Shown here piece by piece: positions 2,046 to 40,661 of a DNA stretch of 64,000 nt (position 1 is the first letter of the stretch; each line of letters starts with the position of its first letter). The stretch is from an uncultured Gammaproteobacteria bacterium (GTDB lineage: Bacteria > Patescibacteriota > Patescibacteriia > UBA9934 > CAZDDW01). The notes beneath the pieces are model-generated. The model had not been told where the DNA came from and ran no database searches. It was given only the letters and a program-made list of their open reading frames with translations. Both the position numbers and the translations under genes were made by a program. Location: positions 83,755 to 147,754 of the forward strand of contig OZ246408.1 of assembly GCA_965231015.1 (NCBI GenBank), read 5' to 3'.

Positions 2046-2049
2046 AGAA

Positions 2050-2268: not shown

Positions 2269-2280
2269 ACAGCCAAAAAC

Positions 2281-2351: not shown

Positions 2352-2366
2352 GCGTTCTTTTTGAAC

Positions 2367-5324: not shown

Positions 5325-5407
5325 AGTGCTTCTAGACTACCTCAATTTTGGGCTAAAGACAAGGCAAACTTCCCCAATTTGTGTTAGGTCTGATTGACAT
5401 ATGGGGA

Positions 5408-5436
5408 TTGACTTTTTGGTCAAAATATGCTATAGT
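5408..5436 (+). promoter_or_regulatory. Promoter module TTGACT-17-TATAGT with the conserved spacer …GGTCAAAATATGC
   Basis: It is a consensus-like sigma70 promoter about 45 nt upstream of the 3D-domain gene and shares the recurrent spacer motif (see findings). Confidence 0.5.
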
Positions 5437-5479
5437 GCACCTCGTTCCGCAGTAAAGCGGAATTTTATTTTATCAATAT

Positions 5480-6037
5480 ATGCCTAAACGCAAGAAACAA
5501 CTTAAAAAGGTATCTAAGTGGAAGAAGTTCGCTAAATTTAGCAAGAAAAATGCTTTCAATTTGGCTCTAATCGGTTTTACTTCGCTTGGTTTAGCCTATT
5601 TTTCACTTCCAAATACCGCCAAGGCTTACTTTGGTGTTTCACCAGAGTTTGATAGCACCTGGGCTGAGGAAATGCGTCTTGAGTTTGAGGTGCTTGAAAA
5701 CCAGTCTAAATCTTACGGCGAGCTTCCGCTTGCCGGAGACGCCAAGCCGCGTTACGAGACCACTGTGCCAACCACTGCTTATACTTCAACCGTGTGGCAG
5801 TGTGATGACACCCCGTTTATTACAGCTTCGGGAACCCATGTTCGTCACGGTGTGGTAGCGGCTAACTTCCTACCGATTGGTACCAAGCTTAAGATTCCTG
5901 AGCTTTACGGTGATCAAGTCTTTATTGTAGAGGACCGAATGAATGCCCGCTATTACAAAAAGATGGACATTTGGATGGAGGACTATGACGAAGCTATCGC
6001 CTTTGGAGTACAAAACTTAACCATTCAGGTTTTCTAA
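5480..6037 (+). CDS. 3D-domain (MltA/YocH-like) cell-wall-binding protein with an N-terminal signal/TM
   Basis: The C-terminus (…TASGTHVRHGVVAAN…PIGTKLKIP…IVEDRMNARYYKKMDIWMEDYDEAIAFG) fits the 3D domain pattern. Confidence 0.6.
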   Translation: MPKRKKQLKKVSKWKKFAKFSKKNAFNLALIGFTSLGLAYFSLPNTAKAYFGVSPEFDSTWAEEMRLEFEVLENQSKSYGELPLAGDAKPRYETTVPTTAYTSTVWQCDDTPFITASGTHVRHGVVAANFLPIGTKLKIPELYGDQVFIVEDRMNARYYKKMDIWMEDYDEAIAFGVQNLTIQVF

Positions 6038-6153
6038 AGATTTGAATGATGTAAAAACGAAAAACTCGTCAGGTATGGCGGGTTTTTCTGTTCTGGTTGT
6101 GGCTTGATCGGATCTGATTTTTATGATAATGTCCCCTCACAAGAATTGTTTTT

Positions 6154-6228
6154 GGCTGCGTGGCGAAGTGGTAACGCAGGGGTCTGCAAAACCTCGATGC
6201 ATCGGTTCGAATCCGATCGCAGCCTCCA
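6154..6228 (+). tRNA. tRNA-Cys (GCA)
   Basis: A cloverleaf was folded by hand: acceptor GGCTGCG/CGCAGCC, anticodon loop CTGCAAA, T-arm ATCGGTTCGAATCCGAT, encoded CCA. Confidence 0.85.
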
Positions 6229-6378
6229 TCCTTCGCTTCATCATATTTTGTTGGTGAAGCGGAGGATGCCCCTCGAGGCTCCGGAGGAGCGAAGTGGGGG
6301 CTTTGATCAGAATAATGAAGCTACGGATGATAAACCAGCATGACAGGGCTGTTTTTTGTTGCTACAATATATAACAAT

Positions 6379-6948
6379 ATGGGAGGAACTAAGAAAAAGA
6401 TTATCGGCCCCGTAATTCGCATCCGCGAGATAGTTTTTGGTTTAGAGGACGGTCTGGTCTCCACGGTTGGAGCTGTGACCGGCATTGCTGCCGGAAGCGG
6501 TAGTACATATGTCGTAGTTTTATCAGGGTTGGTCTTAATTATAGTCGAGGCTCTCTCAATGGGAGCCGGGAGTTACTTGTCAGAGAAGAGTAATCGCGAG
6601 GCTATGTACGCGCGCTACGCGAATGATTCACACATGAAAAAGCATTTGCCGGAACTGTTTCCGGAAACTGACATTAAGGCAGGGTTTGTGATGTGGGCTT
6701 CGTACATGATTGGTGGAATTATTCCTTTGGCTCCATATTTCTTTTTTTCCATCAACAATTCTTATGCACCATCAATTATCGGAACCGCTTTTGCTCTATT
6801 TGGGGTTGGGGTTTGGAAGGCTCGGCACACCAAACGTGATTGGATTAAAAGTGCTCTTGAAATGGTAGTGGTATCGCTTGGGGCAGTAGTGCTGGGGTTT
6901 GTGATTGGGCGCTTGGTGTCAGGCTCTTTTGGAATAAACGTCTACTAA
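6379..6948 (+). CDS. VIT1/CCC1-family (DUF125) putative iron/manganese transporter
   Basis: …EIVFGLEDGLVSTVGAVTGIA… plus C-terminal TM helices are typical of the VIT family. The start was chosen at an internal ATG; the upstream ATG at 6340 is also possible. Confidence 0.65.
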   Translation: MGGTKKKIIGPVIRIREIVFGLEDGLVSTVGAVTGIAAGSGSTYVVVLSGLVLIIVEALSMGAGSYLSEKSNREAMYARYANDSHMKKHLPELFPETDIKAGFVMWASYMIGGIIPLAPYFFFSINNSYAPSIIGTAFALFGVGVWKARHTKRDWIKSALEMVVVSLGAVVLGFVIGRLVSGSFGINVY

Positions 6949-7004
6949 GTCAGTCCGGTTACAGCCTTGAAAAAGAGGCTGTTTTTTGTTAGGATCACTC
7001 TACT

Positions 7005-8201
7005 ATGAAACATGTTTATTTAGATCACGCCGCTACAACCCCGCTTGATCCACGGGTCAAAGAGGCAATGGAGCCGTACATGACGGACCGATTTGGTAAT
7101 CCGTCTAGTTTTCATACTCCGGGCAAACAGGCTAAAGATGACCTGGATGCGGCTCGGGAGCGTATTGCCCGCCAGCTTGGAGTGCGCACAGAAGAGATTA
7201 TTTTTACTTCCGGTGGAACCGAATCTGATAATTTGGCTCTGCTTGGGTTTGCTCGAAAGAATTCTGAACACGGGAAACATATTATTACAACCAAAATCGA
7301 GCATCATGCGGTTCTACACTCTGCCGAGCAGCTGGAGCGGGAAGGTTTTGAGGTGACGTATCTTGAAGTCGATAAGGATGGGCTCGTCAGTGTTGATCAG
7401 GTAATAAAAGCGATTCGTCTGGATACGATCCTCGTAAGCATAATGTACGCCAACAACGAGATTGGAACCGTGGAACCTATTTCAGAAATTGGAAATGCAA
7501 TTGAAAAATATCGGCGCGACAACAAAACCGAGTGGCCAGTTTTTCACACGGATGCCTGTCAGGCCGCGGGCGCACTCGAACTTAACGTTCCAAAACTGCA
7601 TGTCGACATGTTGACGTGCAACGGATCTAAAATTTATGGACCAAAAGGAATCGGGTTATTGTTTAAGAGACGCGAGCTCAAGCTCGAGCCACTTACGTTT
7701 GGTGGTGGACAAGAAATGGGTTTGCGGCCAGGCACCGAGAATGTGGCAGGAGTTATCGGATTAGCCGAAGCTCTCAAGATTGCGGAAGAGGAACGCAAGA
7801 AAGAGTCAGCTCGATTAATTGCCTTGCGAGAAAAATTGATCGCGGGAATTCGTGATAAGATTGAAGGAGTGCGTTTGAACGGTTCAGCAATAGACCGGCT
7901 CCCGAACAATGTAAATATATCGTTTAAAGATATCGAAGGCGAGGCCTTGCTTTTATACCTCGATGCCAAGGGAATATATTGTTCGACCGGGTCGGCGTGC
8001 ACCAGTGCATCGCTTGATCCGTCACACGTGATTATGGCCCTTGGTTTGCCGGCTGAGGTAGCACATTCGGCCATGCGGTTTAGTCTGGGACGGAAAACAA
8101 CTGAAGATGACATTGATTATTTGCTCTCTGAGTTGCCACCACTCGTTGAAAAGATTCGAAAGATTTCCGCCGTTAAGATCGATAAAAAATATTTTGAATA
8201 A
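7005..8201 (+). CDS. iscS: Cysteine desulfurase (NifS/IscS family, PLP-dependent)
   Basis: …LDHAATTP…, …SGGTESDN…, HTDACQAAG and SxHK-type motifs; 398 aa. Confidence 0.9.
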   Translation: MKHVYLDHAATTPLDPRVKEAMEPYMTDRFGNPSSFHTPGKQAKDDLDAARERIARQLGVRTEEIIFTSGGTESDNLALLGFARKNSEHGKHIITTKIEHHAVLHSAEQLEREGFEVTYLEVDKDGLVSVDQVIKAIRLDTILVSIMYANNEIGTVEPISEIGNAIEKYRRDNKTEWPVFHTDACQAAGALELNVPKLHVDMLTCNGSKIYGPKGIGLLFKRRELKLEPLTFGGGQEMGLRPGTENVAGVIGLAEALKIAEEERKKESARLIALREKLIAGIRDKIEGVRLNGSAIDRLPNNVNISFKDIEGEALLLYLDAKGIYCSTGSACTSASLDPSHVIMALGLPAEVAHSAMRFSLGRKTTEDDIDYLLSELPPLVEKIRKISAVKIDKKYFE

Positions 8202-8202
8202 T

Positions 8203-8613
8203 ATGGCTGACGTTCAGTCTCACGATGGAGAAGAAAATTGGTTCTATTCCGCAACCGTGCAGGACCACTTTTTCAATCCGCGGAATCTTGCGACCGAGGG
8301 TCCAACTGATTATGATGCCATGGGTGAGGTTGGTTCGCCGGCTTGTGGGGACAAGATGAAAGTATGGATAAAAGTTGATCCAAAAACGAACAAGATTACT
8401 GACTTTAAATGGCGAACTTTCGGGTGCGCTTCAGCTATTGCTTCGACTTCTGTGGCTTCAGAAATGATGATTGGAAAAACCCTTGAAGAGGCTCAAAAAA
8501 TCACTCCAAGGAAAATTGTGGAAGAGCTTGGCGGTTTGCCTCCGCGAAAGATCCATTGTTCGGTGTTAGCAGATCAAGCCCTTCGAGCCGCAATTAAAAA
8601 CTATCAAAAATAA
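8203..8613 (+). CDS. iscU: Fe-S cluster assembly scaffold (IscU/NifU N-terminal domain type)
   Basis: …GSPACGDKMKVWIKV…, …FGCASAIASTS…, and a C-terminal …IHCSVLADQAL…; the ATG is 2 nt after the iscS stop. Confidence 0.85.
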   Translation: MADVQSHDGEENWFYSATVQDHFFNPRNLATEGPTDYDAMGEVGSPACGDKMKVWIKVDPKTNKITDFKWRTFGCASAIASTSVASEMMIGKTLEEAQKITPRKIVEELGGLPPRKIHCSVLADQALRAAIKNYQK

Positions 8614-8622
8614 GCCTAAAAT

Positions 8623-8883
8623 ATGAAAATAACCATTAAAGTAGATCCAGACCTTTGTATTGGAGCCGCAGCCTGCGTGGCAGTTGCCCCGGATTTTTAT
8701 CGTCTTAACGAAGACAATAAAGCAGTTGTGCTCGACCATGGAAAAGATGGGAATGAATACGAACGCACTATTGAGATCGAAGATGGTGAGCTCGATAATA
8801 TTCTGTTAAGTGCGGAATCTTGTCCGACCCTAGCAGTGTATATTTTTGACGAAGCGGGCAAACAATTGTTTCCCAAAAATTAA
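8623..8883 (+). CDS. Small [4Fe-4S]/[3Fe-4S] ferredoxin
   Basis: CIGAAAC…SCP cysteine pattern, 86 aa, within the Fe-S operon. Confidence 0.7.
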   Translation: MKITIKVDPDLCIGAAACVAVAPDFYRLNEDNKAVVLDHGKDGNEYERTIEIEDGELDNILLSAESCPTLAVYIFDEAGKQLFPKN

Positions 8884-8886
8884 ACT

Positions 8887-10026
8887 ATGAAATATTTGAT
8901 TATCGGTGGTGGCGTCGCTGGAACAACTTGCGCTGAAGAATTGCGCAAGCAGGATGCCAAGGCCGAGATCACAATTGTCAGCGAAGAAAACCACCCACTT
9001 TATTCCCGGGTGCTGCTTCCTCATTACGCCATGGGTAAGGTGTCGCGTGAAAAGTGTTTTTTGAAATCTTTTGAGTGGTACAGAAAACAAAAAATTGAAC
9101 TCATTGAAGGACAACGGGCAGTAAAACTCGACACAGAAAATAAGTTTGTCGAATTAGACGATGCGCGTGAGCTGCCGTATGATAAACTCGTAATCGCTAT
9201 CGGAACTGAGCCACGTCTTGAAACCGGTGAGCCGCGTGGAGTGGGTTACTTTTGGACCATCGACGACACGGACCACTTAGTTAAGTTGCTCGGCGAACCA
9301 GGACACAAACATGCCGTGATTCATGGTGGTGGATTTATTGCGTGTGAATTTTTGAATCTGTTTGCGCATCACGAACTAGCAACCACAGTAGTGTTGCGCG
9401 GTGAACATTTTTGGAATCGGATTCTTGAACCAAAAGTGGCAGATTATTTTATGAATTACCTGAAGGAGCAAGGGGTTGAAATTGTAACTGGGGCAAAAGA
9501 GTTAGAGGTGATGGGCAAGGAGGAGGTCAAAGCTGTTAGAACAAATGGAATTGAGACCAAGTGTTCGGTACTCGGGGTTGCAATCGGAAACGAGATCGAT
9601 TTAACCTGGCTTAAGGAGACAGGGGTTGAGATTGGGGATGGGATTCAAACAAATGAGTATCTTGAAACTAAAGTTTCCAATGTTTATGCTATTGGTGACG
9701 TGGCCGAGAGTTATGACTCGGTGGTGGACAGACAGTATTTGGCCGGAAACTGGGGTCGAGCGTTGACAATGGGCCGCACTTTGGCAAAAACCATGACCGG
9801 TGAGCGGACCGAGTTTCAGCACGTGAGTTCTTACGCGATCAATGTTTTGGGATTAGATGTGACTTTTATTGGTGACACGGACAAGGATGCATCGGAGCGA
9901 GTCGAAATCGAGGAAAAAGAGCAGGGAATTGCCCAAAAACACTATCGGAATGGAATAATGGTTGGAGTAGCCATTTTTGGTAGGGGATTTGATCGAAATA
10001 AGCTTACCCAGGAAGTAGGCAATTAA
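8887..10026 (+). CDS. FAD/NAD(P)-dependent pyridine nucleotide-disulfide oxidoreductase (ferredoxin/rubredoxin reductase-like)
   Basis: N-terminal GGGVAG Rossmann motif and a second GGGFIACE dinucleotide motif; last gene of the Fe-S operon. Confidence 0.8.
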   Translation: MKYLIIGGGVAGTTCAEELRKQDAKAEITIVSEENHPLYSRVLLPHYAMGKVSREKCFLKSFEWYRKQKIELIEGQRAVKLDTENKFVELDDARELPYDKLVIAIGTEPRLETGEPRGVGYFWTIDDTDHLVKLLGEPGHKHAVIHGGGFIACEFLNLFAHHELATTVVLRGEHFWNRILEPKVADYFMNYLKEQGVEIVTGAKELEVMGKEEVKAVRTNGIETKCSVLGVAIGNEIDLTWLKETGVEIGDGIQTNEYLETKVSNVYAIGDVAESYDSVVDRQYLAGNWGRALTMGRTLAKTMTGERTEFQHVSSYAINVLGLDVTFIGDTDKDASERVEIEEKEQGIAQKHYRNGIMVGVAIFGRGFDRNKLTQEVGN

Positions 10027-10067
10027 TTGAAAATTAGCTAAAATAAGATAAAAAGTAGATTTTTGGT

Positions 10068-10105
10068 CCTTATTATTCCTACGTACGAATAATAAGGTCT
10101 TTTTC
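10068..10105 (+). terminator. Rho-independent terminator of the Fe-S operon (CCTTATTATT…AATAATAAGG stem plus T-run)
   Basis: A 10-bp perfect stem followed by TTTTT. Confidence 0.65.
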
Positions 10106-10119
10106 TTTGTGTCTAGACA

Positions 10120-10148
10120 TTGACAAAAAGCCTAAAATATGCTATATT
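10120..10148 (+). promoter_or_regulatory. Promoter copy 1 of the island: TTGACA-17(…GCCTAAAATATGC)-TATATT
   Basis: A consensus -35/-10 at 17-nt spacing. Positions 10120-10155 are nearly identical to 12750-12785. Confidence 0.6.
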
Positions 10149-10290
10149 TGTATGTTCTCCGTGTTAGGCTTTTGGTCGTATTTTAGAAAATGCCGAGCGG
10201 AGGAAAAGATTTCCTCGCTCTTTACAATAAGGCAAAACCACAAAAAAAAATGTGCGGCGGCAAAAGCCGATCGCACGGAGGGAAACAAAA

Positions 10291-12675
10291 ATGGCCAAGT
10301 CTGCTACCGCAACCACTTTGATAAGCTTAGTGGCGAACATCGCCAACTGGACGAACGACAACCTGGGCGGTCGTATCGCGCGACCGTTCATCGAGAAGGC
10401 CATCCACGCGCTGTCCGCGCAGGGGGCCAAGTTGTCGGCCTCGGCCGTCATCAAAGAGCTCGTGAAGCTCGGCTTCAACCCGGAAGCCGTGCAGGGCTCG
10501 GCGCTCTTCAAGTACGCCGCTCCCACCCTGCTGACCGCAGGTGCGGGCGCGCTGAACGTGAAGGTGCCGGAATCGGTCTTCGGCGGTGATATCCGCCAGG
10601 CCAAGGAGCTCGAGAGCTTCTTGAACAACGTGATCGATCGAGCCGGCGAGGGAGCCTCGTCCGGCATCACCACAAGTGGGGTCGATGATCAGACCATGCC
10701 CGGGGTCACTCCCGGAACCATGGTCTACGGCAAGGCTCACAACATGCCGGGCCTCGCCGGGTACCGGCACCTGGCCATTCAGGGTCAGGGGGACCAGGTC
10801 TCCACGGTTTGTTCGGCCGTGGATCGGTTCTACGAGAACAACGCCTTGCGCGAGCTCATCATGAAGATGGGACTCCGGCGCCTCGACCGTGACACGGACG
10901 TCACGGAGATCGAGCCCCACATGACCTACCACCTCCCCCAGGAGGTCGACCACCTCCCGGACTGCCCCCACTGCCTCGGGCGTCTGATGGGCCTCGAGAG
11001 CGATGAGCTCTCGGGTCCGGACAGTCTGGAGCAGCTGCTCGACACTGAGCAGAAGCGAAAGTGGGCGGCTCTCGTCCGCCATGTGGCAGCTCACGAGCAC
11101 CGCGTGGCTATGATGATCCTGAAGAAGGGTCGCGTTGCGATCCTGAAGCAGGAGGGTCTCGTGGACGTGCTCAAGCTCGCCCTCGATGACATCGAGATCG
11201 GACCGGAGACGTTCGAGAAGGACGCCAGGCGGAAGGTGTTGCCCCACGGCATCACCGGAGCCGAGCATGACCGGACGGGCAACCAGATCGCCCCGTCGGC
11301 TCAGGGCGTCGTGGACGTCTTGTACCTCATGGACGAGGTTCAGGTCGATGGCGTCACCGAGTGGCGTCAGCTGCTCGACGAGTCCGTGGACGGGAACTGG
11401 TGGCAGGCCAAGAAGCGTCAGGCCGCCAAGTTCGTGGCCAACAACGGCGCGTTCGGCGTGGCAGTCCTGGCCTTCCTCGGGGTGCTCATGGGCATCCTGG
11501 TCCTCGGACTGGAGCTCATGTTCCTCGGGGCGGCGGCTCTTGGCGAGACGCTCTACGTCATGAGCTGGATGGGTGGTCCGGACTGGATGTTCGGCAACCC
11601 GATCGTTCCGGGCATCTTGAGCCTGTTCCTGGTCGCGATCGGCGTGGCCATCATGGCCGCTCCGTTTCACCTCCTTGAAAAGATGGTCTTTGGCCTTAAG
11701 AGCCACTGGCCGAGCTTTGACGAGGCAGTGGAGCGACTACCGGCATGGTTGCACTGGCTAAAGAGCGAGCGCGCCGAGGCCGGCACCACGGTGTACCGTC
11801 GCTCCGGGGTGGTCAAGTCACTGGCGCTGACCGTGATCACGGCTCACTTACTGTACGCCGTGCCGGTGCTGATCATCAACCTCGAGGCGTTTTTTTTCTT
11901 CCCGAACGTGCTGGAGGCAACCGAAGTGGTCAGCCGACTGATCGCCTTCCTGTCGCTGGCTATGCTCGGCTTCTGGATGCTGTCCGCCACGCGCGGGTCG
12001 TACCAGGAGGACAAGAATCGCGAAGAGGTTCTGTTGAATCGCCGGGGCGCGAACCGGTTCGTGGCTTTCCTATCGGATTCCGCGTACTCTGCGGTGAGGA
12101 GCTTCAACTGGGGCAGCGCGTTCACCTACGTGCTGTCCATCTGCGTGATCCCGGTCGTTTGGGGGGTCACGAAGATGTCTGGCTGGGCGTCCCCGTCGGT
12201 CACCAACCCCTCGATCATCGCGGGAGCCAACACGGGCTTCTTCACGAAGCTCACCGGTGTGCCCGGAAGCGTGCACCTCGGGGTGTTCGTGGGCATCTTG
12301 TTGGTCGCACTGCTTATATTGGTGGTGGCCGTGAACGTGCGCAACCGCGCCGGCGAGGTGGTGCTCTGGTCCATGATGGGCCTGTGCATCTTTCTGCTCG
12401 TCGGATACTTCGGCATCGGTGTTCCTGGTTTGACCGTGGCCAAGCTCGCCACGGACGTCGGACACGGAGACGGCTTCTTCGAAGCCCCGACGTACGACGG
12501 GATGTATCCCGACAAGAAGGACGAGCGACGCGCCCGGCGCAGTGCTCCGGTCTCGGGATATACCACAACCCCGACGACCGCCAACCCCCCTGTGGTTTCT
12601 AACCCCCAGCCCGGTTCGGATCGATCCGACGAGATCAAGAAGGCTCGTCAGGAATTGGCCGAATATGGCTGGTAG
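10291..12675 (+). CDS. GC-rich island protein A: 794 aa, a ~400-aa soluble N-domain (contains DCPHC) fused to a ~8-10 TM membrane domain and a Pro/Thr-rich tail; function unknown
   Basis: A GGAGGG RBS lies 9 nt upstream of the ATG. There is strong GC3 bias in this frame only. Long antisense ORFs are GC artefacts. No recognisable family motif. Confidence 0.72.
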   Translation: MAKSATATTLISLVANIANWTNDNLGGRIARPFIEKAIHALSAQGAKLSASAVIKELVKLGFNPEAVQGSALFKYAAPTLLTAGAGALNVKVPESVFGGDIRQAKELESFLNNVIDRAGEGASSGITTSGVDDQTMPGVTPGTMVYGKAHNMPGLAGYRHLAIQGQGDQVSTVCSAVDRFYENNALRELIMKMGLRRLDRDTDVTEIEPHMTYHLPQEVDHLPDCPHCLGRLMGLESDELSGPDSLEQLLDTEQKRKWAALVRHVAAHEHRVAMMILKKGRVAILKQEGLVDVLKLALDDIEIGPETFEKDARRKVLPHGITGAEHDRTGNQIAPSAQGVVDVLYLMDEVQVDGVTEWRQLLDESVDGNWWQAKKRQAAKFVANNGAFGVAVLAFLGVLMGILVLGLELMFLGAAALGETLYVMSWMGGPDWMFGNPIVPGILSLFLVAIGVAIMAAPFHLLEKMVFGLKSHWPSFDEAVERLPAWLHWLKSERAEAGTTVYRRSGVVKSLALTVITAHLLYAVPVLIINLEAFFFFPNVLEATEVVSRLIAFLSLAMLGFWMLSATRGSYQEDKNREEVLLNRRGANRFVAFLSDSAYSAVRSFNWGSAFTYVLSICVIPVVWGVTKMSGWASPSVTNPSIIAGANTGFFTKLTGVPGSVHLGVFVGILLVALLILVVAVNVRNRAGEVVLWSMMGLCIFLLVGYFGIGVPGLTVAKLATDVGHGDGFFEAPTYDGMYPDKKDERRARRSAPVSGYTTTPTTANPPVVSNPQPGSDRSDEIKKARQELAEYGW

Positions 12676-12683
12676 GACTTCCT

Positions 12684-12733
12684 GGCCCGGTCGGGACGCG
12701 CAGTAAAATGCGTTGTCTCGGCCGGGTCTTTTC
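12684..12733 (+). terminator. Imperfect hairpin terminator after protein A (GGCCCGGTCGGGAC…GTCTCGGCCGGGTC plus TTTT)
   Basis: A stem with 2 mismatches followed by a T-run. Confidence 0.4.
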
Positions 12734-12749
12734 CGTTTATGCTTATATC

Positions 12750-12778
12750 TTGACAAAATTGCTAAAATATGCTATATT
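12750..12778 (+). promoter_or_regulatory. Promoter copy 2 of the island: TTGACA-17(…TGCTAAAATATGC)-TATATT
   Basis: A near-duplicate of 10120-10148. Confidence 0.6.
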
Positions 12779-12980
12779 TATATGTTCACAATTCATACTC
12801 GAGGGGAAGAGTAAGGCGCTGATTCTTTGTTTAACTGGGTTTTCCGGTTAAATATCCCCTCAAGAATTAGCGCTTTATTCGTCCCATTGAGGACACCAAC
12901 CAGAACCTTTCAATAATAGAACGACGACGGGGGAGGACCCCCAACAATAAAGGGGTTCCACCCCGAAAGGAGATACGGGT
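12779..12980 (+). promoter_or_regulatory. Roughly 200-nt structured 5' leader of the lipoprotein gene (several G/C hairpins; AGGAGA RBS at its end)
   Basis: Hairpins CTCGAGGGGA…TCCCCTCAAG, GGGGGAGGACCCCC and AAAGGGGTTCCACCCC are seen directly. Confidence 0.4.
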
Positions 12981-13751
12981 ATGAGGTACATCCTCATGAT
13001 GCTCGCAACCCTGACCCTGGTCGGCACCTCCGGGTGCAGCACCTACAACACGGCCACTCGCGGTGGCCAGTTCTTCGGCACCGGTGCGGTGGCCGTGCGC
13101 GGCATGGACGTCGCACAGGACATGTGCACCACCAAGGACGGCGAGAGATTGCCGTGCAACCTGTCGGCCGTGAGCACCCCGCACGGGGCCGTGGTCGGCG
13201 CGAGCAACGGCGCCTACTACGGCTACCCGTACAGCGCGGTGCCGTACGCGCCGGGCATGATGCTCGGCGGATCGACCGGCAACCCGCAGCTAGACTCGGT
13301 CAAGTTGTACCGCGCCACCCATCCGGGGGTGCCGTACAACCAGACCGCGGCAGACCTGTCCGCGGCCGGGACGTACCAGGCGGTGCGTCAGGGTCAGATG
13401 ACCCGGGCCGCGGTGGCCGGCAACACCGCCGCGATCTACGATGTCGCGGCCGACCAAGCCGCCACGGACGAGTCCGTGCGCGGCCTTGAGGCGAACCAGG
13501 CCGCCACTGCGGCCGAGGTTGAGGACGTGAATCTGCGTTTGCATCAGAACGCGCAGACGCAACAACGGATGGCCCAGGACATTGCCGGGGCCATCAAGGA
13601 GAACGAGGACCGAGCCAATGCGGCCGGTCAGGCGGCCAGCCTGGCTCTCGAGGTTCTCGACGAGGGTGGGTCGAATGGTTCGGCACTGACCGTGGATCAC
13701 CAGATCGAGATCGCGGTTCCGGCCGGGACTGCGGAGGAGGACGACCGATGA
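12981..13751 (+). CDS. GC-rich island protein B: lipoprotein (lipobox LVGTSGC) with an Ala/Gln-rich coiled-coil C-terminus
   Basis: Signal peptide plus lipobox, AGGAGA RBS, and GC3 bias in this frame. Confidence 0.68.
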   Translation: MRYILMMLATLTLVGTSGCSTYNTATRGGQFFGTGAVAVRGMDVAQDMCTTKDGERLPCNLSAVSTPHGAVVGASNGAYYGYPYSAVPYAPGMMLGGSTGNPQLDSVKLYRATHPGVPYNQTAADLSAAGTYQAVRQGQMTRAAVAGNTAAIYDVAADQAATDESVRGLEANQAATAAEVEDVNLRLHQNAQTQQRMAQDIAGAIKENEDRANAAGQAASLALEVLDEGGSNGSALTVDHQIEIAVPAGTAEEDDR

Positions 13752-14566
13752 AGAAGCTAAACCTGATCGCGGTGGCCTTCGTGGTCGCCACCTGCTGTGT
13801 GCTCCCGGCCTACGGGCAGGGAGGCAACCAGCCTTTCGTGATCTCGGAGTCCACCTGGCAGATGTGCCGGGAGGAGGGGATCACGGTGTACGAGGAGTGC
13901 GTGCTCGCCAAGGCTGCCGTGTCCTACACGGCGGTCAAGGGAGAGCGTGACGAGCTTCAAACCCAGAACGCGCACCTGCGCGGTCAGGTCGCGAATCTCG
14001 AGGACGAGAACGCGCACCTGCGCGGTCGCGTCATCTCGCTTGAAGACGCCCAGAGCAGGCTCGAGGCCAAGCTCGACGACCTGCTCGCCGCATCCGCGAC
14101 CGGACCAGCGCCGAGCCTGACCACTCCGGCCATGCCCGCCGCCGCACCAGTGGCCGACCCGCTTTCGGTCGCCTGGAGCAGCGAGCCGCGCAACCACGAG
14201 TTCGCGGCCCTCACCGGTTTGACCTGGGAGTCGTGCGAAGACATGGGTCTTTGCACGGCGTTCGTGAACCAGTCCGCCTACTCGATCACGATCGACGTGG
14301 GCGGGGTGCGTACGGTCATCGGCCGGTCGCACGGGGTCGCGAGCCTCACTCCGGCGCCAACCACTCATGGCGCCGAGACTCTGGTCGGACCGGGTCAGCG
14401 GGTGTACTTGTACGTCGGAGAATCGAGCTTCGACGCCACGTACACCGCGTACGTGCCGATCCGAGGTACGTTCGTGCCGAGCTTCACAAAGACGGTCACG
14501 AACGTGAAGACCAAGGGGGCCAATCCTTTCAAGGGGATTGGCCGAGGTGGCTGGAGCTCCCTCTAG
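13748..14566 (+). CDS. GC-rich island protein C: secreted protein with tandem leucine-zipper-like repeats (NAHLRGQVANLEDENAHLRGRVISLED) and a C-terminal globular domain
   Basis: The ATGA start/stop overlap with protein B implies translational coupling. A signal peptide is present. The repeat is visible at the DNA level (13963-14040). Confidence 0.68.
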   Translation: MKKLNLIAVAFVVATCCVLPAYGQGGNQPFVISESTWQMCREEGITVYEECVLAKAAVSYTAVKGERDELQTQNAHLRGQVANLEDENAHLRGRVISLEDAQSRLEAKLDDLLAASATGPAPSLTTPAMPAAAPVADPLSVAWSSEPRNHEFAALTGLTWESCEDMGLCTAFVNQSAYSITIDVGGVRTVIGRSHGVASLTPAPTTHGAETLVGPGQRVYLYVGESSFDATYTAYVPIRGTFVPSFTKTVTNVKTKGANPFKGIGRGGWSSL

Positions 14567-14595
14567 CCCTGGTCTTCTTCTCTCCAAAAAAAAAA

Positions 14596-14634
14596 CACCC
14601 CGCAGGGTTCTCTTGCGGGGTGTCTCACTTTTTA
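14596..14634 (+). terminator. Strong rho-independent terminator ending the GC-rich cassette (CACCCCGCAGGG…CTTGCGGGGTG plus TTTTT)
   Basis: A 10-bp GC stem plus a T-run, immediately after protein C. Confidence 0.75.
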
Positions 14635-14644
14635 TAGAATTGTC

Positions 14645-15037
14645 TTAACCTTGGGCAGCTGTGACAATCGCGGAGATAACGTAGGAAGAAATGGCGTACG
14701 CAGCCACGGTAATGATCAGACCAATAATGGCATTGATCATAATTCCCTTGGCTTTCTTCACGGTGTCGGAATTACCACCGGCGGTCATCCAAAGAAATCC
14801 TGAATAAACAATCAGGACCACAAAGACAAGACCGAGCAACCCGAGCACCACGTTGATAATACCGGCAATTATGGTGGTCAAATCTCCTGAACCAAATCCA
14901 CCTTCTGTGCCAACGTCAGTCAGTGACTGTGAGGCTCCGTCTAAACCAGTAAAGGCATCATCTTGAGCATGAGCTACACTGGCACTAAGGTAAGTCAGTG
15001 GAGAAAGGGCCGCTAGGGTTTTGATAACCTTATGCAT
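14645..15037 (-). CDS. TrbC/VirB2-like pilin-family small membrane protein (paralog 5 of 5)
   Basis: Signal peptide, then hydrophobic helix, GGxxWMTxGGN loop, and a second hydrophobic helix (…YSGFLWMTAGGNSDTVKKAKG…). Confidence 0.5.
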   Translation of the reverse strand: MHKVIKTLAALSPLTYLSASVAHAQDDAFTGLDGASQSLTDVGTEGGFGSGDLTTIIAGIINVVLGLLGLVFVVLIVYSGFLWMTAGGNSDTVKKAKGIMINAIIGLIITVAAYAISSYVISAIVTAAQG

Positions 15038-15069
15038 AAGTTTGTTATTTATTAGTTTTCTAAAATTAA

Positions 15070-15456
15070 TTATCCGGCAGTACCTGATCCGCTCACGGCC
15101 TGAACAAGAGCCGGTACCACATAACTGGCAATGGCATAGGCCGCGGCCACAATCACAAGTCCAATCAGGGAATTAACAATGGTGGCTCGAGCCTTTTTGA
15201 CCGTTTCAGTGTTTCCCATCGCGGTCATCCAGGTAATACCACCATAAATTAAAAGCACTACAAAAACAAGACCAACAATACCAAGCACTGCATTAATGAT
15301 GCCAGCAACCACTCCGGCCAGGGACGGGGCCGTGGAACCAAATCCGGCCGCACCGGCAGTGTCCTGGAGACCGGTATCTTCCGGACTGATAGCCTGAACC
15401 AGGCTTGGTGGACCAAGCATCAGCAGACTCAAAATAACGTAGTAGACTTTTCGCAT
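15070..15456 (-). CDS. TrbC/VirB2-like pilin-family small membrane protein (paralog 4)
   Basis: Same architecture (…YGGITWMTAMGNTETVKKARA…). Confidence 0.5.
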   Translation of the reverse strand: MRKVYYVILSLLMLGPPSLVQAISPEDTGLQDTAGAAGFGSTAPSLAGVVAGIINAVLGIVGLVFVVLLIYGGITWMTAMGNTETVKKARATIVNSLIGLVIVAAAYAIASYVVPALVQAVSGSGTAG

Positions 15457-15530
15457 ATGACGCGAGAGGACGAAATATTCATCCGCTCACGCCAGGCCCC
15501 TTCTAAAATGAATCAGAAGGGGCTTTGGTT

Positions 15531-15956
15531 TTAAGCAACCGCTTCCACCAGAGCATTGATAACAAAGCTGGCGATAGCGTAGGCGGCAAGTACAATAGCC
15601 AGACCAATGATACCCATGATGATCAGCTTGCGTGCGTTACGCACCTTTTCATCTTGACCACCAGAGGTCATCCACAGGAAGCCACCCCAGAGAATGATCA
15701 CAACTGCTACTACTCCGAGGAATCCAAGGATGGCTCGGATAATGGTAGCGATCACAGTGGCCAGATCTGCCTGACCAAGACCAGCTACGTCCCCAATCGT
15801 TTCACCTTCCCCGCCTTCAACCCGTAAAAGATCATTAGCGGAAATTGGAGCGTAGGAGTCGTCATCATCGTCCTGCGCCAAGGCTGGAACAGCCACCATG
15901 CTCATGCATAGAGCCATACCAAGACCAAGGGCAATCAGCTTCTTTGTCATAGACAA
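15531..15956 (-). CDS. TrbC/VirB2-like pilin-family small membrane protein (paralog 3)
   Basis: Same architecture (…WGGFLWMTSGGQDEKVRNARK…) with an acidic DDDDD segment after the signal peptide. Confidence 0.5.
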   Translation of the reverse strand: MSMTKKLIALGLGMALCMSMVAVPALAQDDDDDSYAPISANDLLRVEGGEGETIGDVAGLGQADLATVIATIIRAILGFLGVVAVVIILWGGFLWMTSGGQDEKVRNARKLIIMGIIGLAIVLAAYAIASFVINALVEAVA

Positions 15957-16064
15957 ATGTGTTAATTAACTAGTTAATTACTTAAATAATTATAGCACAA
16001 TAAGCAGGAAACCGTATACACAAACAACTTAAATCAGAGTTTTTATTATTTGAAGCATAGCTTC

Positions 16065-16412
16065 TTAATTTCCACTGATTTCTCCACTCGTCAGAGCGCG
16101 AATGACTTGATCTACAGCTAAATACGAAGTGAAAATAATAGCCAGACCAATCACGGCCCAAATAAGAGTCTTTTTTCCTTTTTCTATTGCCTCGCTTTTA
16201 CCGCCCGAAGTTAACCAAAGAAAACCACCGTAGATGAACATTAAAAGAGCTACTGATCCGGAAATACCAAGAGCCACTCGAATGACGCGACCGATTAAAA
16301 CCGGAATAGAAGCTCCACCGAGTGGATCAGTTAATTCTTGAGCCAGGGCCGGGTTAATAATTACAACTAGGGCAACAAGGGTGAGAAAAGAAATTAAGTA
16401 AAACTTTTTCAT
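16065..16412 (-). CDS. TrbC/VirB2-like pilin-family small membrane protein (paralog 2)
   Basis: Same architecture (…YGGFLWLTSGGKSEAIEKGKK…). Confidence 0.5.
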   Translation of the reverse strand: MKKFYLISFLTLVALVVIINPALAQELTDPLGGASIPVLIGRVIRVALGISGSVALLMFIYGGFLWLTSGGKSEAIEKGKKTLIWAVIGLAIIFTSYLAVDQVIRALTSGEISGN

Positions 16413-16426
16413 ATAAATGTTTTTGA

Positions 16427-17071
16427 TTAAAATTCTTCAGGAGCCTCTCCAATATCAACTTCAGTACAACACACTTCCTCAGCTCCCAAAGGGCACAGTC
16501 CGGTTCCTGAACTACAGTTAGGGGCTAGGCCGTGGGTACTTTCCGAATAACACACGCCGCCTTCTTGATAATTACAAAGTGTGGTACAGATTCCGTTTTC
16601 ACAAACCGCGTTGACATCGCAGGCGGTTCCATCCTCAGTATCAAAGGTACATGGAGCATATTCAGCACTACTGCCGGCAATGGTTCCTCGGGTGATGGTT
16701 GATTCAACAGTTTGTATTCCGATGTAAGCCACGAATACAATAATGATTCCCACAATAGCCCCGGTTATATAGGCCTTGCCTTTTTGAACTCGACCGGATT
16801 CACCCTGGGAAGCCAGTAAATAAAAGCCACCAACTACAAACAGGAGCAGAGCCAAAGAGCCAACTATGCCCAAGATGTAATCTGAAATATTAACAAAGAC
16901 CTGTAAAAAGTCGTTTAAAGAACAGTCCCCGGTTTCCCAGCAGAGAGTGGTTACTCCCGAGAGTATTCCGGCCTCAGAAGCACTCACCGTACTTTCACTT
17001 TCCTGAGCCAGGGCTGGCAGGGCAGTGGCCGATAAGGTCAGGGCTATCAATAATCCTGTCAACCTTTTCAT
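16427..17071 (-). CDS. TrbC/VirB2-like pilin-family protein with an extra C-terminal Cys-rich domain (paralog 1)
   Basis: Core …GGFYLLASQGESGRVQKGKA…, plus a ~70-aa C-terminus with 14 Cys. The start overlaps the stop of the upstream SBP gene by 4 nt. Confidence 0.5.
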   Translation of the reverse strand: MKRLTGLLIALTLSATALPALAQESESTVSASEAGILSGVTTLCWETGDCSLNDFLQVFVNISDYILGIVGSLALLLFVVGGFYLLASQGESGRVQKGKAYITGAIVGIIIVFVAYIGIQTVESTITRGTIAGSSAEYAPCTFDTEDGTACDVNAVCENGICTTLCNYQEGGVCYSESTHGLAPNCSSGTGLCPLGAEEVCCTEVDIGEAPEEF

Positions 17072-18462
17072 AAAGTTTGATTTACTTGCGATTGAGCTTT
17101 GCGTAATTCTTTTTCCAGGTCTTCCGCACCGGTTAAGACATCTTCGACAAAGTTTAACAGGGCTTCTTCAGCGGCTTCAGCATCTTCTCCGTCATACCAA
17201 TCATCAGCTGTTAACACTTGGCTGGCGAAAACAGACAGGTCAAGATCATCAAGTTGGGTGTTAATCAGTGAGCGCAAAGCGGTTGGTTTATCTGCGCTTT
17301 CTAAAAACTTGATTACGTTTTCAGCCTCGGCAGTATATTGGATAAAGTCCCAGGCTTCATTTAAGTGCTCGGTGTCTTTGGCCACAACCTCGATCCAATA
17401 GTTAGCAAAATTGACTGTACGGCTGTTTTCAATTTGTGGCACCGGAGCAATTTCAAAGTTGAGTTTTGGATTGCGAGCTCGCAGCTGTGGAATGTGATAG
17501 GCATAGCCAAAGAAGAAGGCGGTAGTGCCATTGGCAAAAGCATCAAACGAATCTTCCATATCTTCGTTCCAAGTATAAACTTCTTTGATTGGATTGGCAA
17601 AATCAGTGTAGAAACGCACGGCATCAATGGCCGGAGGAGTGCGACTGGTAGACCCAGTCGGAACCTCGGCAAAGTAAGCACGGTTCCCACTCATCATCTG
17701 AGTTCCATTTTGCATCATTAAAATTGATACAATATCGACCGCCCGTTCCACATTTTCTGTGGTTCCAATTGCTGCTCCAGACTGAACAATTCCACCATCT
17801 AGGTCAACCAAGGTGAGTTCTTTAACTTGAGATTGAAAATCTGACCATGTAGCCGGTGGTTCCGGAATTCCGGCCGCGTTCAAAAGATCCTTGTTGTAAA
17901 AAAGGGCCAGGGTATCGACTGAATAGGGTAGGCCCCAAATGCGGTTCTCTGAAGCTGATTGACTTGAGGCCTGATAACGGCGCACCACGTCATCAGCCAC
18001 CACATCGACATAGTCATTTTTTAGCTTATTAATGGTCAGGCTTTTTTCTTCCCGAATGACAGCCACAGTTTCTTTTTGAAGAGTGCCCTGAACTTCAAGA
18101 TAGACCAGGTTAAGACTTTCCGGTAGCGGAGTAATCAGAGGCTCATATTTTTCCATCCATGTGTTGTGAATACTAAACATGTCCGGCCCTCGGTCTTCTG
18201 CAAAAGCTTGCACCAGCTCGTCCTCATATTCTTCGTATCTCTTTTTTACGATGTTGATGTTGATGTTGGGGTGGATTTCACGGTAAGCACTGATAATTTC
18301 ATCAAAATCATTCTCTCCCTCGAAAACTCGCCAGTAGGTCAAGTTGATTTTTTCATTGGCGGCTTGTTGGGCTGCCTGGTTTCCACCTTTAAAACAGCTC
18401 TGTCCAGTGGTTACTAGAAAAATCAAGACCAAGGCCAATAAACTGATTCTTTTTATTTTCAT
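17068..18462 (-). CDS. ABC transporter extracellular solute-binding lipoprotein (family 1, sugar-type)
   Basis: Lipobox (TTGQSC), length and composition typical of SBP_bac_1. Confidence 0.75.
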   Translation of the reverse strand: MKIKRISLLALVLIFLVTTGQSCFKGGNQAAQQAANEKINLTYWRVFEGENDFDEIISAYREIHPNININIVKKRYEEYEDELVQAFAEDRGPDMFSIHNTWMEKYEPLITPLPESLNLVYLEVQGTLQKETVAVIREEKSLTINKLKNDYVDVVADDVVRRYQASSQSASENRIWGLPYSVDTLALFYNKDLLNAAGIPEPPATWSDFQSQVKELTLVDLDGGIVQSGAAIGTTENVERAVDIVSILMMQNGTQMMSGNRAYFAEVPTGSTSRTPPAIDAVRFYTDFANPIKEVYTWNEDMEDSFDAFANGTTAFFFGYAYHIPQLRARNPKLNFEIAPVPQIENSRTVNFANYWIEVVAKDTEHLNEAWDFIQYTAEAENVIKFLESADKPTALRSLINTQLDDLDLSVFASQVLTADDWYDGEDAEAAEEALLNFVEDVLTGAEDLEKELRKAQSQVNQTL

Positions 18463-18465
18463 ATT

Positions 18466-19338
18466 TTATAAATCCTTACAGATTTTTTTGAGTTCTTTTT
18501 TAAAGTTGGCTCCGTACTTTTTATCGGCCAAAGCCATTTCTACGTTGGTTTTGAGCCAGGCCTCAATAGTTCCAATATCACGGTAAACACCCTCAACTTT
18601 TTTGGCGTAAATTGGTCGTTTTTTTGCCAGAGCAAAAATGGCGTCCACCAGCCAAAGCTCGTTGTCTTTACCAAGCTTGGTTTTTTCCAAGATGTCGAAG
18701 ATGTCCGGGGTCAAGATGTAACCACCGATAGCGGCTAATTTTGACGGTGCTTTGTCAGGACCTGGTTTTTCCACGATCCCGTTAACTTGAACTACACCAG
18801 GTTCAACTTCGGCAGCAGGATCAATGATTCCAAAACGACTTTGCCCCTTTTTGTCGGTTGGGATAGCGGTTAGAACCGGGTCAGTGTATTTGTTGTAAAC
18901 TTCAATCAGTTGCTTGACCCTAGGCTTCTTGCTTGAGAGAAATTCATCACCCCAAACCACTACAAATGGTTCGTCTCCGACCACGTGTCGAGCGTTCAAA
19001 ACCGGTGTCCCATTTCCATATGGGCCTTTTTGTCGAATATAAACGAAGTTGGCCATGTCAGCAATGTGTTTGACCTCTTCGCGCAAAGCATCCTTGCCCT
19101 GCTTTTTAAGCATGGTCTGAAGTTCGAAGTTGTAATCAAAGTGGTCCTCAACTGCACGTTTACTCATTCCGGTCACCAGAACTATGTTCTCGATTCCGCT
19201 CGCGACACATTCCTCAACCACATATTGAATCACCGGCTTGCCTACAACCGGCATCATTTCTTTAGGCATTGCCTTAGTGGCGGGCAAAAATCTGGTTCCA
19301 AATCCCGCAACAGGGATAACAGCGGTTTTGATGGCCAT
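18466..19338 (-). CDS. galU: UTP--glucose-1-phosphate uridylyltransferase
   Basis: …AVIPVAGFGTRFLPATKAMPKEM… N-terminal motif; 290 aa. Confidence 0.88.
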   Translation of the reverse strand: MAIKTAVIPVAGFGTRFLPATKAMPKEMMPVVGKPVIQYVVEECVASGIENIVLVTGMSKRAVEDHFDYNFELQTMLKKQGKDALREEVKHIADMANFVYIRQKGPYGNGTPVLNARHVVGDEPFVVVWGDEFLSSKKPRVKQLIEVYNKYTDPVLTAIPTDKKGQSRFGIIDPAAEVEPGVVQVNGIVEKPGPDKAPSKLAAIGGYILTPDIFDILEKTKLGKDNELWLVDAIFALAKKRPIYAKKVEGVYRDIGTIEAWLKTNVEMALADKKYGANFKKELKKICKDL

Positions 19339-19639
19339 ATTCGGTTAAAAATAGGATTAATTTCGCTTTATAGTATACCTTTTTTGCCTATTTTAGTAAA
19401 ACAAAAATATCCCGAGCAACAAACTTGGAATACTTATCATCTTTGCTATCCAGTGTTTTAATATTTCAGCTAACATTTCGGCATATCTGATGTTTGCCGT
19501 AGCGTAGCAGAGGCAAATATAGGTGAAGGCTCTACAAGAGCCGTAACCAGATATACGCTGTTATATGATGTACATGTTTTCCTTTAATTTCTGAAAGAAA
19601 TTGCTCTTACAAAAGAAAGATCCGATTTTGTTTTTCCGT

Positions 19640-19757: not shown

Positions 19758-20630
19758 CTATTTCTTGAAATATTTCTTGATAATAGCAATTACATCTTTT
19801 TTATCACTGACTTTCATTAAATCTTGTGTGCTTTCTTTTGCGAAACGATTCAGTTTCGGTAAATTCAGATGACAAGCTCGAATAATTTTATGTTTTGCAA
19901 ATTTAATTAGGCTGGGATCGTTTTTGTTGAAAATACCAAGACGAACAAAAAGTGTTTCGTATGCCATTATTATTGCGAAAAAATAAACAAATGGAATAAA
20001 CGAGAATGTTAATAATGGAGGCAAAATAAAAGTCTTCAAATTTTGTGAAGTCATAATATTCTGAAAATCACCAAAAACTTTTCCAAGTGCAAAAACAATG
20101 AAAAAAACACCAATCAAAGACAGAATAAAATCAAATAACTTTTTTACAGGCAGATACTCTTTTTTTAATTCAGAAACAGCACTCATTGCTACGATAAAAA
20201 CCAAAACGGGAACTAAAATTATTTCCGCTACTAAATTAAATGTGTAGAGCGTTAGAATAAACTCAAGGGCTAAAATGATTTTGAGGTTATCTTTCAAGAT
20301 TTTAATGAAAAATCCTTTTTCCTGATTTGCCTTGTTAGTATTCATGAGTAATACAAACGCAACGGCTAAAAACCAGTAAATCGTATCTTTTAGAAGTGAA
20401 AAATCCCAGATTCCAATTTTAACTAATACTAAAACTGTAAATCCGGTATATACAATCGCAGCAATAATGACAGATAGTATTTTTATTTGGAAAAGAGATT
20501 TTAAAACACCAGAAAAGGATTGTCTGATTTTCTCTTGAGAAAGTATCCAAATTGTCAAAACAAGAAGCCAGAGAATTATTGCTATTTCTCTTGTGTTGAA
20601 TTGTTGAAAAAAGGTCATGAATTTATCCAT
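19758..20630 (-). CDS. Polytopic membrane protein of unknown function (8 predicted TM helices), AT-rich island
   Basis: The 290-aa hydrophobic ORF overlaps the stop of the upstream 517-aa gene by 8 nt. Confidence 0.5.
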   Translation of the reverse strand: MDKFMTFFQQFNTREIAIILWLLVLTIWILSQEKIRQSFSGVLKSLFQIKILSVIIAAIVYTGFTVLVLVKIGIWDFSLLKDTIYWFLAVAFVLLMNTNKANQEKGFFIKILKDNLKIILALEFILTLYTFNLVAEIILVPVLVFIVAMSAVSELKKEYLPVKKLFDFILSLIGVFFIVFALGKVFGDFQNIMTSQNLKTFILPPLLTFSFIPFVYFFAIIMAYETLFVRLGIFNKNDPSLIKFAKHKIIRACHLNLPKLNRFAKESTQDLMKVSDKKDVIAIIKKYFKK

Positions 20631-22176: not shown

Positions 22177-22204
22177 AACTCTATTTCTGCAATCATGAAA
22201 TTTA

Positions 22205-40568: not shown

Positions 40569-40661
40569 GGGATTTTTCCCCCTAGAAAAAAGCACCGGCG
40601 TTCGTGCCGGGCGTAGTTTGGTAATGTACCGCAAAGATTGTAACATTTTCCTTGTTCCGGG

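Follow-up and report, generated by a model that had tools for sequence, protein, structure and literature searches.

A GC-rich three-gene envelope cassette with duplicated promoters and folded leaders, very probably ancestral in its bacterial clade

Blocks of bacterial DNA that deviate in composition from their surroundings are routinely read as products of horizontal gene transfer (HGT), and acquired genomic islands are among the closest described systems to the locus reported here. This locus, termed the cassette, consists of three plus-strand genes (A, B and C) in a 64-kb stretch of contig OZ246408.1 (hereafter, the window), between an Fe-S operon and an array of type IV secretion system (T4SS) pilin genes. 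Like a genomic island, the cassette is a block of about 4.5 kb which is bounded by terminators, encodes orphan envelope proteins and deviates by more than 4 standard deviations (sd) in the G+C content of third codon positions (GC3). Unlike genomic islands, however, it has no mobility genes and no att or tRNA borders, it has no homologue outside the clade in the databases searched, it occupies the same site in every related locus recovered, its non-coding parts have the native composition, and its composition has stayed stationary over a divergence that saturates the synonymous sites of the flanking genes. Of five features of a recent island, deviating composition was found, and the other four (mobility, patchiness, donor homologues and amelioration) were not. 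The cassette is therefore very probably ancestral and maintained, and not a product of recent HGT. As a block more than 4 sd from its background that appears old, vertically inherited and stationary, it is a counter-example to the routine reading of compositional outliers, and it offers a natural system for studying how the GC3 of one bacterial locus can be held so far from the equilibrium of its genome.

Other described systems resemble the cassette in part. Highly expressed bacterial genes are codon-biased and have slowly evolving synonymous sites (a relationship of the Sharp and Li type). The cassette likewise has a strong bias, a synonymous divergence (dS) two- to five-fold below that of its neighbours, the strongest promoters of the region and an origin-proximal position. 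Compared with such genes, it prefers G/C-ending codons across the board (AAG, GAG and CAG included), the bias spills into codon positions 1 and 2, and its proteins evolve fast, unlike those of classical highly expressed genes, which are conserved. Operons for S-layer or other major surface proteins, for example slpA of Lactobacillus, have strong or multiple promoters and long stabilising hairpins in the 5' untranslated region. The cassette shares with them secreted or anchored proteins, consensus promoters, long folded leaders, strong terminators and rapid divergence, but no SLH or other S-layer or anchoring domain was detected in its products, one of which, a large polytopic membrane protein, has a cytoplasmic domain. 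Finally, its trio of a polytopic protein, a lipoprotein and a secreted or anchored protein, beside VirB2-type (PF18895) pilin genes, recalls VirB6/TrbL, VirB7 and VirB8 of T4SSs. In contrast to a T4SS core, the A, B and C families match neither TrbL/VirB6 nor VirB8 nor any other Pfam model, no VirB4/VirD4 ATPase gene is located within about 10 kb, and a distant homologue of A (in locus L043, described below) does not stand beside pilin genes. The Pam pili of Mycosynbacter (10.64898/2026.03.03.709456) were also considered, and were set aside as a different locus with no link to the cassette.

Composition and inheritance of the cassette

The GC content of 1-kb segments is 0.56-0.67 over 10-15 kb of the window, compared with about 0.43-0.49 on either side and a window mean of about 0.45. 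All three genes are clear outliers, since their GC3 (0.84-0.86) lies at z = +4.1 to +4.3 relative to the 53 other open reading frames (ORFs) of the window (mean 0.452, sd 0.095, maximum 0.73). Cassette codons end uniformly in G or C (AAG 0.98, GAG 0.85, CAG 0.91, ATC 0.90 and GTA 0.00), whereas the background genes prefer AAA (0.73), GAA (0.65) and ATT (0.59) and also favour CAA and TTT. The enrichment is not restricted to third positions. The G+C contents of first and second positions (GC1 and GC2) exceed the background by 0.05-0.13, and the ratio of arginine to lysine counts (R/K) is 1.4 in the cassette and 0.8 in the background, which indicates that the force acts on nucleotides and not on synonymous choice alone. 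The intergenic DNA at the cassette (promoters and leaders) has a GC content of 0.36-0.46, and a non-conserved 356-nt spacer between A and B in the related locus L040 has 0.37; these AT-rich segments speak against GC-biased gene conversion (gBGC) and against a mutational bias of the whole region. An earlier note on this DNA, made from the sequence alone, had described a GC-rich three-gene block with deviating codon usage and with GC-rich, structured leaders. The block and its codon usage are fully borne out, and so is the strong structure of the leaders, but the leaders are not GC-rich. Two long antisense ORFs (10327-11706 and 13757-14587) were rejected as genes, being by-products of the avoidance of TTA, CTA and TCA in the sense frame.

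The cassette was compared with the related loci or contigs L001, L004, L005, L040, L042, L043, L044 and L166, of which L004 and L166 are short contigs without flanks. L005, an independent Logan assembly (run SRR7048225), is 100% identical to positions 291-19505 of the window (19,215 nt) and covers every junction, so mis-assembly is excluded. The loci L001, L040 and L042 share the order VIT1-IscS-NifU-ferredoxin-oxidoreductase, then A, B and C, then four to five T4SS_pilin genes, a solute-binding protein gene and a nucleotidyltransferase gene, and L044 shares it as far as its short contig extends. Among the loci of relatives, no Fe-S/pilin site empty of the cassette was recovered. The A proteins of these loci are 82% (L001), 24% (L040), 23% (L042) and 22% (L044) identical to that of the window, and the B and C orthologues of the distant syntenic loci are 18-26% identical. 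The families are rare. Each of A, B and C has three to four close homologues among 5.8 billion protein clusters, and a profile of A retrieved seven proteins in total from 1.84 billion representative proteins: five full-length ones whose loci were fetched, all in loci resembling those of the candidate phyla radiation (CPR), and two fragments which were not placed. GTDB representative genomes, searched with the A alignment, and IMG/VR contained no homologue. A scan of genome contigs with the neighbouring oxidoreductase gave matches in distant, unrelated taxa only. One of the source samples is a deep-subsurface groundwater biofilm (PMC5364579).

High GC3 is retained throughout these lineages. The mean GC3 values of cassette and flanks are, respectively, 0.85 and 0.45 in the window, 0.85 and 0.47 in L001, 0.79 and 0.46 in L040, 0.82 and 0.54 in L042, and 0.75 and 0.51 in L044; the cassette genes of L004 and L166 have 0.84-0.86 and 0.80-0.91. 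In the three distant lineages (A about 22-24% identical), cassette GC3 is 0.69-0.87 against 0.38-0.64 in the flanks, and it is 0.69-0.91 over all seven lineages. The time available for decay has been long. The proteins encoded in the flanks of the window and of L001 share 80-99% identity, the dS of these flank genes is 1.1-3.0 or uncomputable, and the frequency of identical codons is 0.52 compared with 0.38 expected at saturation. Under a two-state relaxation model, an unconstrained insert starting at a GC3 of 0.85 would have reached 0.53-0.64 since the window/L001 split alone. However, the observed cassette GC3 is unshifted in the window, in L001 and in the far more divergent lineages. The shared slot and the stationary high GC3 in divergent relatives therefore point to vertical inheritance and not to recent import, and the enrichment very probably belongs to the three ORFs themselves and is maintained there, and is not the fading signature of a donor.

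The substitution rates between the window and L001 point in a similar direction. In the cassette, dS is 0.46-0.60, which is two- to five-fold below that of most flank genes (1.1-3.0), while the nonsynonymous divergence (dN) is 0.11-0.15 compared with 0.003-0.12 in the flanks. The resulting dN/dS is 0.20-0.27 in the cassette and 0.01-0.05 in the flanks, a 5- to 10-fold difference, whereas cassette dS amounts to roughly one third of flank dS. Low dS together with high dN/dS indicates that the synonymous sites of the cassette are constrained while its proteins evolve fast. An outgroup-polarised count of synonymous changes gave 54 from G/C to A/T (S-to-W) against 8 in the reverse direction (W-to-S), and it was rejected as evidence of decay because of parsimony bias: a saturated outgroup at 84% S yields about 5:1 S-to-W by misinference alone.

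Promoters, leader RNAs and encoded proteins

The positions and main properties of all features are given in Table 1. The promoter modules upstream of A (P_A) and B (P_B) are a duplicated pair with 81% identity over 52 nt. Both are near-consensus sigma-70 promoters, the best of this type in the window, and they are the sole zero-mismatch matches in 64 kb to TTGACA-N14-TGNTATAWT, in which the -35 and the TG-extended -10 elements are 17 nt apart. The architecture TTGAC-N9-AAAATA-NGNTANNNT occurs at five plus-strand sites (5408, 10120, 12750, 28429 and 43982), compared with 0.04 expected by chance, and the site at 43982 is the promoter upstream of the 23S rRNA gene. Thus, the two near-identical copies of a native type of promoter described in the earlier note are present and have the same design as the 23S promoter; its statement that the module is reused for rRNA and housekeeping genes holds for the shared architecture and not for identical copies.

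Both promoters are kept nearly base for base where the proteins fall to about 22% identity. P_A is conserved in L001, L040, L042 and L044, and so is the portion of it contained in the truncated start of L004; P_B is conserved in L001, L004, L040 and L042, and the second promoter of L044 is degenerate. The consensus upstream of A is TTGACAAAA[AT]G[CG]CTAAAATATGCTAT[AG]TT, and that upstream of B is TTGACAAAAT[CTG]GCTAAAATATG[GC]TATATT. The 17-nt spacer of P_A includes CTAAAATA; as (G)CTAAAATA, this spacer motif is conserved among the five promoters, and it may be a promoter element specific to the lineage or the binding site of a factor. The -35 element of P_A is abutted by a T-rich segment upstream and by the perfect palindrome TGTCTAGACA. 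In addition, a 14-nt inverted repeat (10122-10135 and 10164-10177, 93% complementary) brackets the -10 element and the transcription start. The palindrome and the inverted repeat (10111-10177), which are conserved only in part in relatives, may act as an operator. In L040, an AT-rich insert of about 356 nt (9815-10170 of that locus) in the A-B spacer contains a hairpin and a further site resembling TTGACA; this insert is absent from the other lineages.

The upstream terminator belongs to the Fe-S operon (IscS-NifU-ferredoxin-pyridine nucleotide oxidoreductase), and the right-border terminator is common to the cassette and the convergent minus-strand pilin array. The three terminators themselves were located at 10068-10097, 12684-12728 and 14595-14623, within the slightly wider segments of Table 1. 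From this arrangement, we predict two transcription units, A alone and the pair B-C, each with its own promoter, strong Shine-Dalgarno (SD) sequence and strong terminator.

Table 1 Features of the cassette and its borders. Positions are those of the window. MFE, minimum free energy; GC1/GC2/GC3, G+C content at codon positions 1, 2 and 3.
Feature	Position	Strand	Description
Terminator of the Fe-S operon (left border)	10068-10105	+	11-bp stem followed by a T run
Promoter module P_A	10106-10157	+	-35 TTGACA at 10120-10125; TG-extended -10 TATATT at 10143-10148
Leader A	10155-10290	+	about 135 nt, structured, internal hairpins; MFE -48.2 kcal/mol, z = -4.3
Gene A	10291-12675	+	794 aa; GC1/GC2/GC3 0.63/0.43/0.84; start at 10291 backed by homologue alignment
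Terminator after A	12684-12740	+	19-bp stem followed by UCUUUUCCGUUU; -35.9 kcal/mol, z = -5.7; conserved in L001 and L004
Promoter module P_B	12736-12787	+	-35 at 12750-12755; TG-extended -10 at 12773-12778; TTGACA-N17-TATATT
Leader-B RNA element	12790-12899	+	near-continuous hairpin of about 27 bp between transcription start and SD
Second conserved GC hairpin	12925-12980	+	GGGG...CCCC / GGGG...CCCC, followed by the gene B SD AAGGAG
Gene B	12981-13751	+	256 aa; GC1/GC2/GC3 0.67/0.51/0.86; signal peptide ending TSG/C
Gene C	13748-14566	+	272 aa; GC1/GC2/GC3 0.62/0.51/0.84; Sec signal peptide
Right-border terminator	14595-14634		13-bp stem with 8 GC pairs, between an A run and a T run

Both leaders are strongly folded. 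In leader A, the 5'-terminal UUCUCCGUG is able to pair with CACGGAGGG, which includes the SD. This leader is highly conserved among the window, L001 and L004, and no robust consensus structure was found over the distant lineages. Leader B as a whole has an MFE of -81.3 kcal/mol (z = -7.3). When its six lineages were aligned, 92% of the cells were paired and six pairs showed compensatory changes, compared with at most 58% paired cells in slid controls. A covariance model of leader B (R1) gave one match per cassette, always upstream of B, and none elsewhere in the window. At Rfam 15 gathering thresholds, neither leader had a match, and relaxing the threshold to E <= 5 gave only chance-level matches elsewhere. 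A degenerate DNA pattern of leader B gave 120 matches by chance, of which none was confirmed by R1. Judging from its folding and covariation and from the lack of an Rfam match, leader B is a new structured RNA element. Long-hairpin 5' leaders can serve as RNase III sites or 5' stabilisers. Leader B likewise has a helix of about 27 bp with compensatory changes between the transcription start and the SD; compared with simple long-hairpin stabilisers, it has in addition a conserved apical UCCCCUC, which may pair alternatively with a 5' GAGGGGA, and it is without an Rfam family.

Protein A has an N-terminal domain of about 380 aa, which is cytoplasmic and contains conserved Cys...CPxC and HEH motifs, with DCPHC present. 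Beyond residue 380, it has about seven to nine hydrophobic or transmembrane (TM) helices, and the polytopic region and Pro/Thr-rich tail of the earlier note are confirmed. The C-terminal part combines the conserved motif GDGFFEAPTYDxxYP and a basic patch with a Pro/Thr linker and an amphipathic charged C-terminal helix. The homologues of A share the motif G[DE]G[FI][FY]xxxTxDxxY downstream of the TM region, and in the distant ones the loop after TM5 is extended on the extracytoplasmic side by an insert of 150-200 aa. Protein B, which is probably a lipoprotein in view of its signal peptide, contains two conserved cysteines, a Gly/Tyr/Pro-rich segment and an Ala/Gln-rich coiled coil. Protein C consists of a leucine-zipper coiled coil with a duplicated ENAHLRG, a Pro/Ala linker and a C-terminal domain (about 130 aa) in which two conserved cysteines would form a disulfide; at the DNA level, the ENAHLRG repeat (13965-13990 and 14007-14032) is 92% identical. 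The orthologues of B and C retain their cysteines despite their low identity. Genes B and C overlap by ATGA (13748-13751), with the gene C SD GGAGGAGGA inside the 3' end of B, and through this overlap the translation of C is predicted to be coupled to that of B. The gene coordinates, DCPHC, signal peptides, NAHLRG duplication and ATGA overlap had all been read correctly in the earlier note. Its view of an envelope-associated system is also supported, since A is a polytopic membrane protein, B probably a lipoprotein and C a protein with a Sec signal, and the extracytoplasmic cysteines are conserved.

As the earlier note had found, the three proteins match no named family. Searches of Pfam, PHROGs, NCBIfam and PADLOC with A, B and C gave coiled-coil noise only, nine members of the A family and seven of the C family were also without a Pfam or NCBIfam match, and PDB sequence profiles gave no match below E = 0.03. 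AlphaFold2 models of the cassette proteins were poor, and fold searches with them gave noise. On these profile comparisons, A, B and C appear to be three linked orphan protein families.

Origin and maintenance of the GC enrichment

The earlier note proposed a foreign or mobile cassette wired to native promoters and named, as a speculation, a high-GC actinobacterial host as the donor. A recent acquisition of this kind fits the composition and codon use, which at every codon position resemble those of a genome with about 63-65% GC, and it fits the coincidence of the cassette borders with terminators. It is nevertheless very improbable. The same site, the same promoters and a GC3 of 0.69-0.87 are found in L001, L040, L042 and L044, including lineages whose orthologues are about 22% identical, and flank dS is saturated even between the closest lineages. 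No actinobacterial or other homologue from outside the clade was found in the databases searched. The cassette borders have no integrase, no att-like or flanking direct repeats and no tRNA within 4 kb, and the sole long repeat is the internal promoter pair. Homologues of equally high GC in relatives, which the earlier note itself had named as the sign of an ancestral cassette, are thus what was observed. The abrupt composition steps at 10.1 and 14.6 kb might also be explained if a chimeric assembly or contamination had placed high-GC DNA in a low-GC genome, but the independent assembly is identical through the junctions, assemblies from other samples have the same arrangement (at least four lineages), and the GC-rich ORFs alternate with promoters and leaders of low GC, so this possibility can practically be dismissed. 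An ancient acquisition by the ancestor of the clade, with the donor-like composition retained, is unlikely but more credible, and it is compatible with inheritance and local maintenance of a cassette of foreign origin. GC1, GC2 and GC3 jointly resemble those of a higher-GC genome, the three proteins are orphans without detectable relatives elsewhere, and the distant homologue in L043 is located in another context and is only mildly enriched. However, origin alone does not explain persistence, and a maintaining force is still needed; in addition, no donor lineage is detectable, and the two promoters and the two leaders date back as far as the genes do. The L043 homologue is truncated (699 aa) and stands next to ProRS on a contig with a GC content of 0.43. 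It is followed by a 218-aa ORF (12315-12971) missed by the gene caller, and both (10001-12971 of that locus) are only mildly GC-enriched, which hints that the strong enrichment arose within the pilin-linked clade.

With respect to the maintaining force, we give about even credence to the reading that the cassette is a vertically inherited, fast-evolving and clade-restricted envelope module which is very strongly expressed, with an actively maintained GC enrichment confined to its ORFs. The consensus promoters, folded leaders, strong terminators and proximity to dnaA-dnaN (about 10 kb away on the same strand) fit very high and stable expression, and on these features the cassette is probably expressed very strongly and stably. 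A pressure of this kind would remove A/T-ending codons, and to a lesser extent codons of A/T-rich amino acids, from the reading frames while sparing the DNA between them. Its most likely cause would be selection tied to very high expression, or to the stability and translation of the cassette messages; as the cause of the enrichment, selection linked to expression or mRNA properties is held tentatively, at slightly less than even confidence. Several observations weigh against this picture. The bias is like that of a generic genome of 63-65% GC, with near-exclusive AAG, GAG and CAG and raised GC1 and GC2, and the shift in GC1, GC2 and R/K is unlike classical translational selection. The A homologue of L043 has a GC3 of 0.48, with neighbours at 0.28-0.65 (mostly 0.28-0.46). 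The third pilin gene (pil3, 15531-15956) has a dS of 0.39 at a GC3 of only 0.49 and is 99% identical to its L001 orthologue, which means that synonymous constraint in this region needs no high GC. Finally, the window and the fetched loci contain no ribosomal-protein or elongation factor genes, and six tRNA genes are visible. A gene-specific compositional constraint of an undescribed kind, in which the GC-rich coding sequence has a dedicated function at the RNA or translation level, is somewhat unlikely but should be kept in mind, since the ORFs stay about 40 points above the rest of the genome in third-position G+C down to about 22% protein identity. Such a constraint could consist in extreme mRNA longevity or in protection from an AU-directed RNase, together with the hairpin leader and the duplicated rRNA-type promoter. 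We regard gBGC at a recombination hotspot as rather improbable. Allelic exchange of surface genes in a naturally competent lineage, with W-to-S fixation, would raise GC1, GC2 and R/K along with GC3, would fit the elevated dN/dS, and would suit surface proteins adjoining pilin genes; yet conversion tracts would not spare the intergenic DNA, which is at or below background GC even in the 356-nt spacer, and the cassette dS is below flank dS, not above it. The gBGC effects reported in bacteria are also far smaller than the +0.40 shift in GC3. Codon matching to a high-GC host, in which DNA or mRNA of the cassette would be delivered and expressed through the adjacent T4SS-type apparatus, would account for the codon usage and for the five VirB2-like pilin genes next to it, but it is hardly credible: the promoters are of the symbiont's own rRNA type, the SDs are canonical, the ordinary signal peptides and polytopic topology suit the producer's own envelope, and no oriT, relaxase or coupling ATPase is located nearby.

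In the strongly expressed envelope module that we favour, proteins A, B and C would assemble into a membrane-anchored structure at the cell surface. Fast evolution and adjacency to the T4SS-type pilin array favour a surface or host-contact role, and together with the topology of the proteins they make such a role the most likely one. The pilin array is thought to mediate cell contact, and the cassette beside it is probably among the most strongly expressed surface modules of the lineage. Should its products make up a major structure of the cell surface, they would be foremost among the candidates for attaching to or recognising a host. In addition, the promoter-leader pairs would serve as expression parts for genetics in such organisms.

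Neighbouring features of the window

Five tandem paralogous T4SS_pilin genes (PF18895, VirB2-like; 14645-17071, minus strand) converge on the cassette terminator, and an array of this kind is present in all syntenic relatives. No ATPase gene is found in the surrounding 20 kb in any locus. In the rRNA region (44318-47817), the 23S rRNA gene is 3317 nt long compared with a model of 2925 nt, which corresponds to about 390 nt of insertions; a 5S rRNA gene follows it, and there is no adjacent 16S rRNA gene in the window. The length of the source contig (1,002,985 bp), the pilin arrays and the 23S insertions point to Patescibacteria/CPR. The genome is about 1.0 Mb in size with about 45% GC.

The window also contains a low-GC outlier. 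At 19758-22314 (minus strand), together with 23376-24566, two ORFs without a Pfam match (290 and 563 aa) have a GC content of 0.29-0.32 and a GC3 of 0.27-0.28, and they adjoin an EcoRI-like adenine methyltransferase gene (PF13651, E = 3e-124). These genes probably form a restriction-modification island that was truly acquired, and they are the real outlier of the window towards low GC. Moderately GC3-rich genes (0.53-0.73) are located on either side of the rRNA genes (39453-43526, minus strand; 48106-49623, plus strand). They encode an OTCase-like carbamoyltransferase, a SPOUT methyltransferase, a GNAT acetyltransferase, two membrane proteins without assignment and a lipoprotein with an arylsulfotransferase-like domain, and their codon shifts have the same direction as those of the cassette and are weaker.

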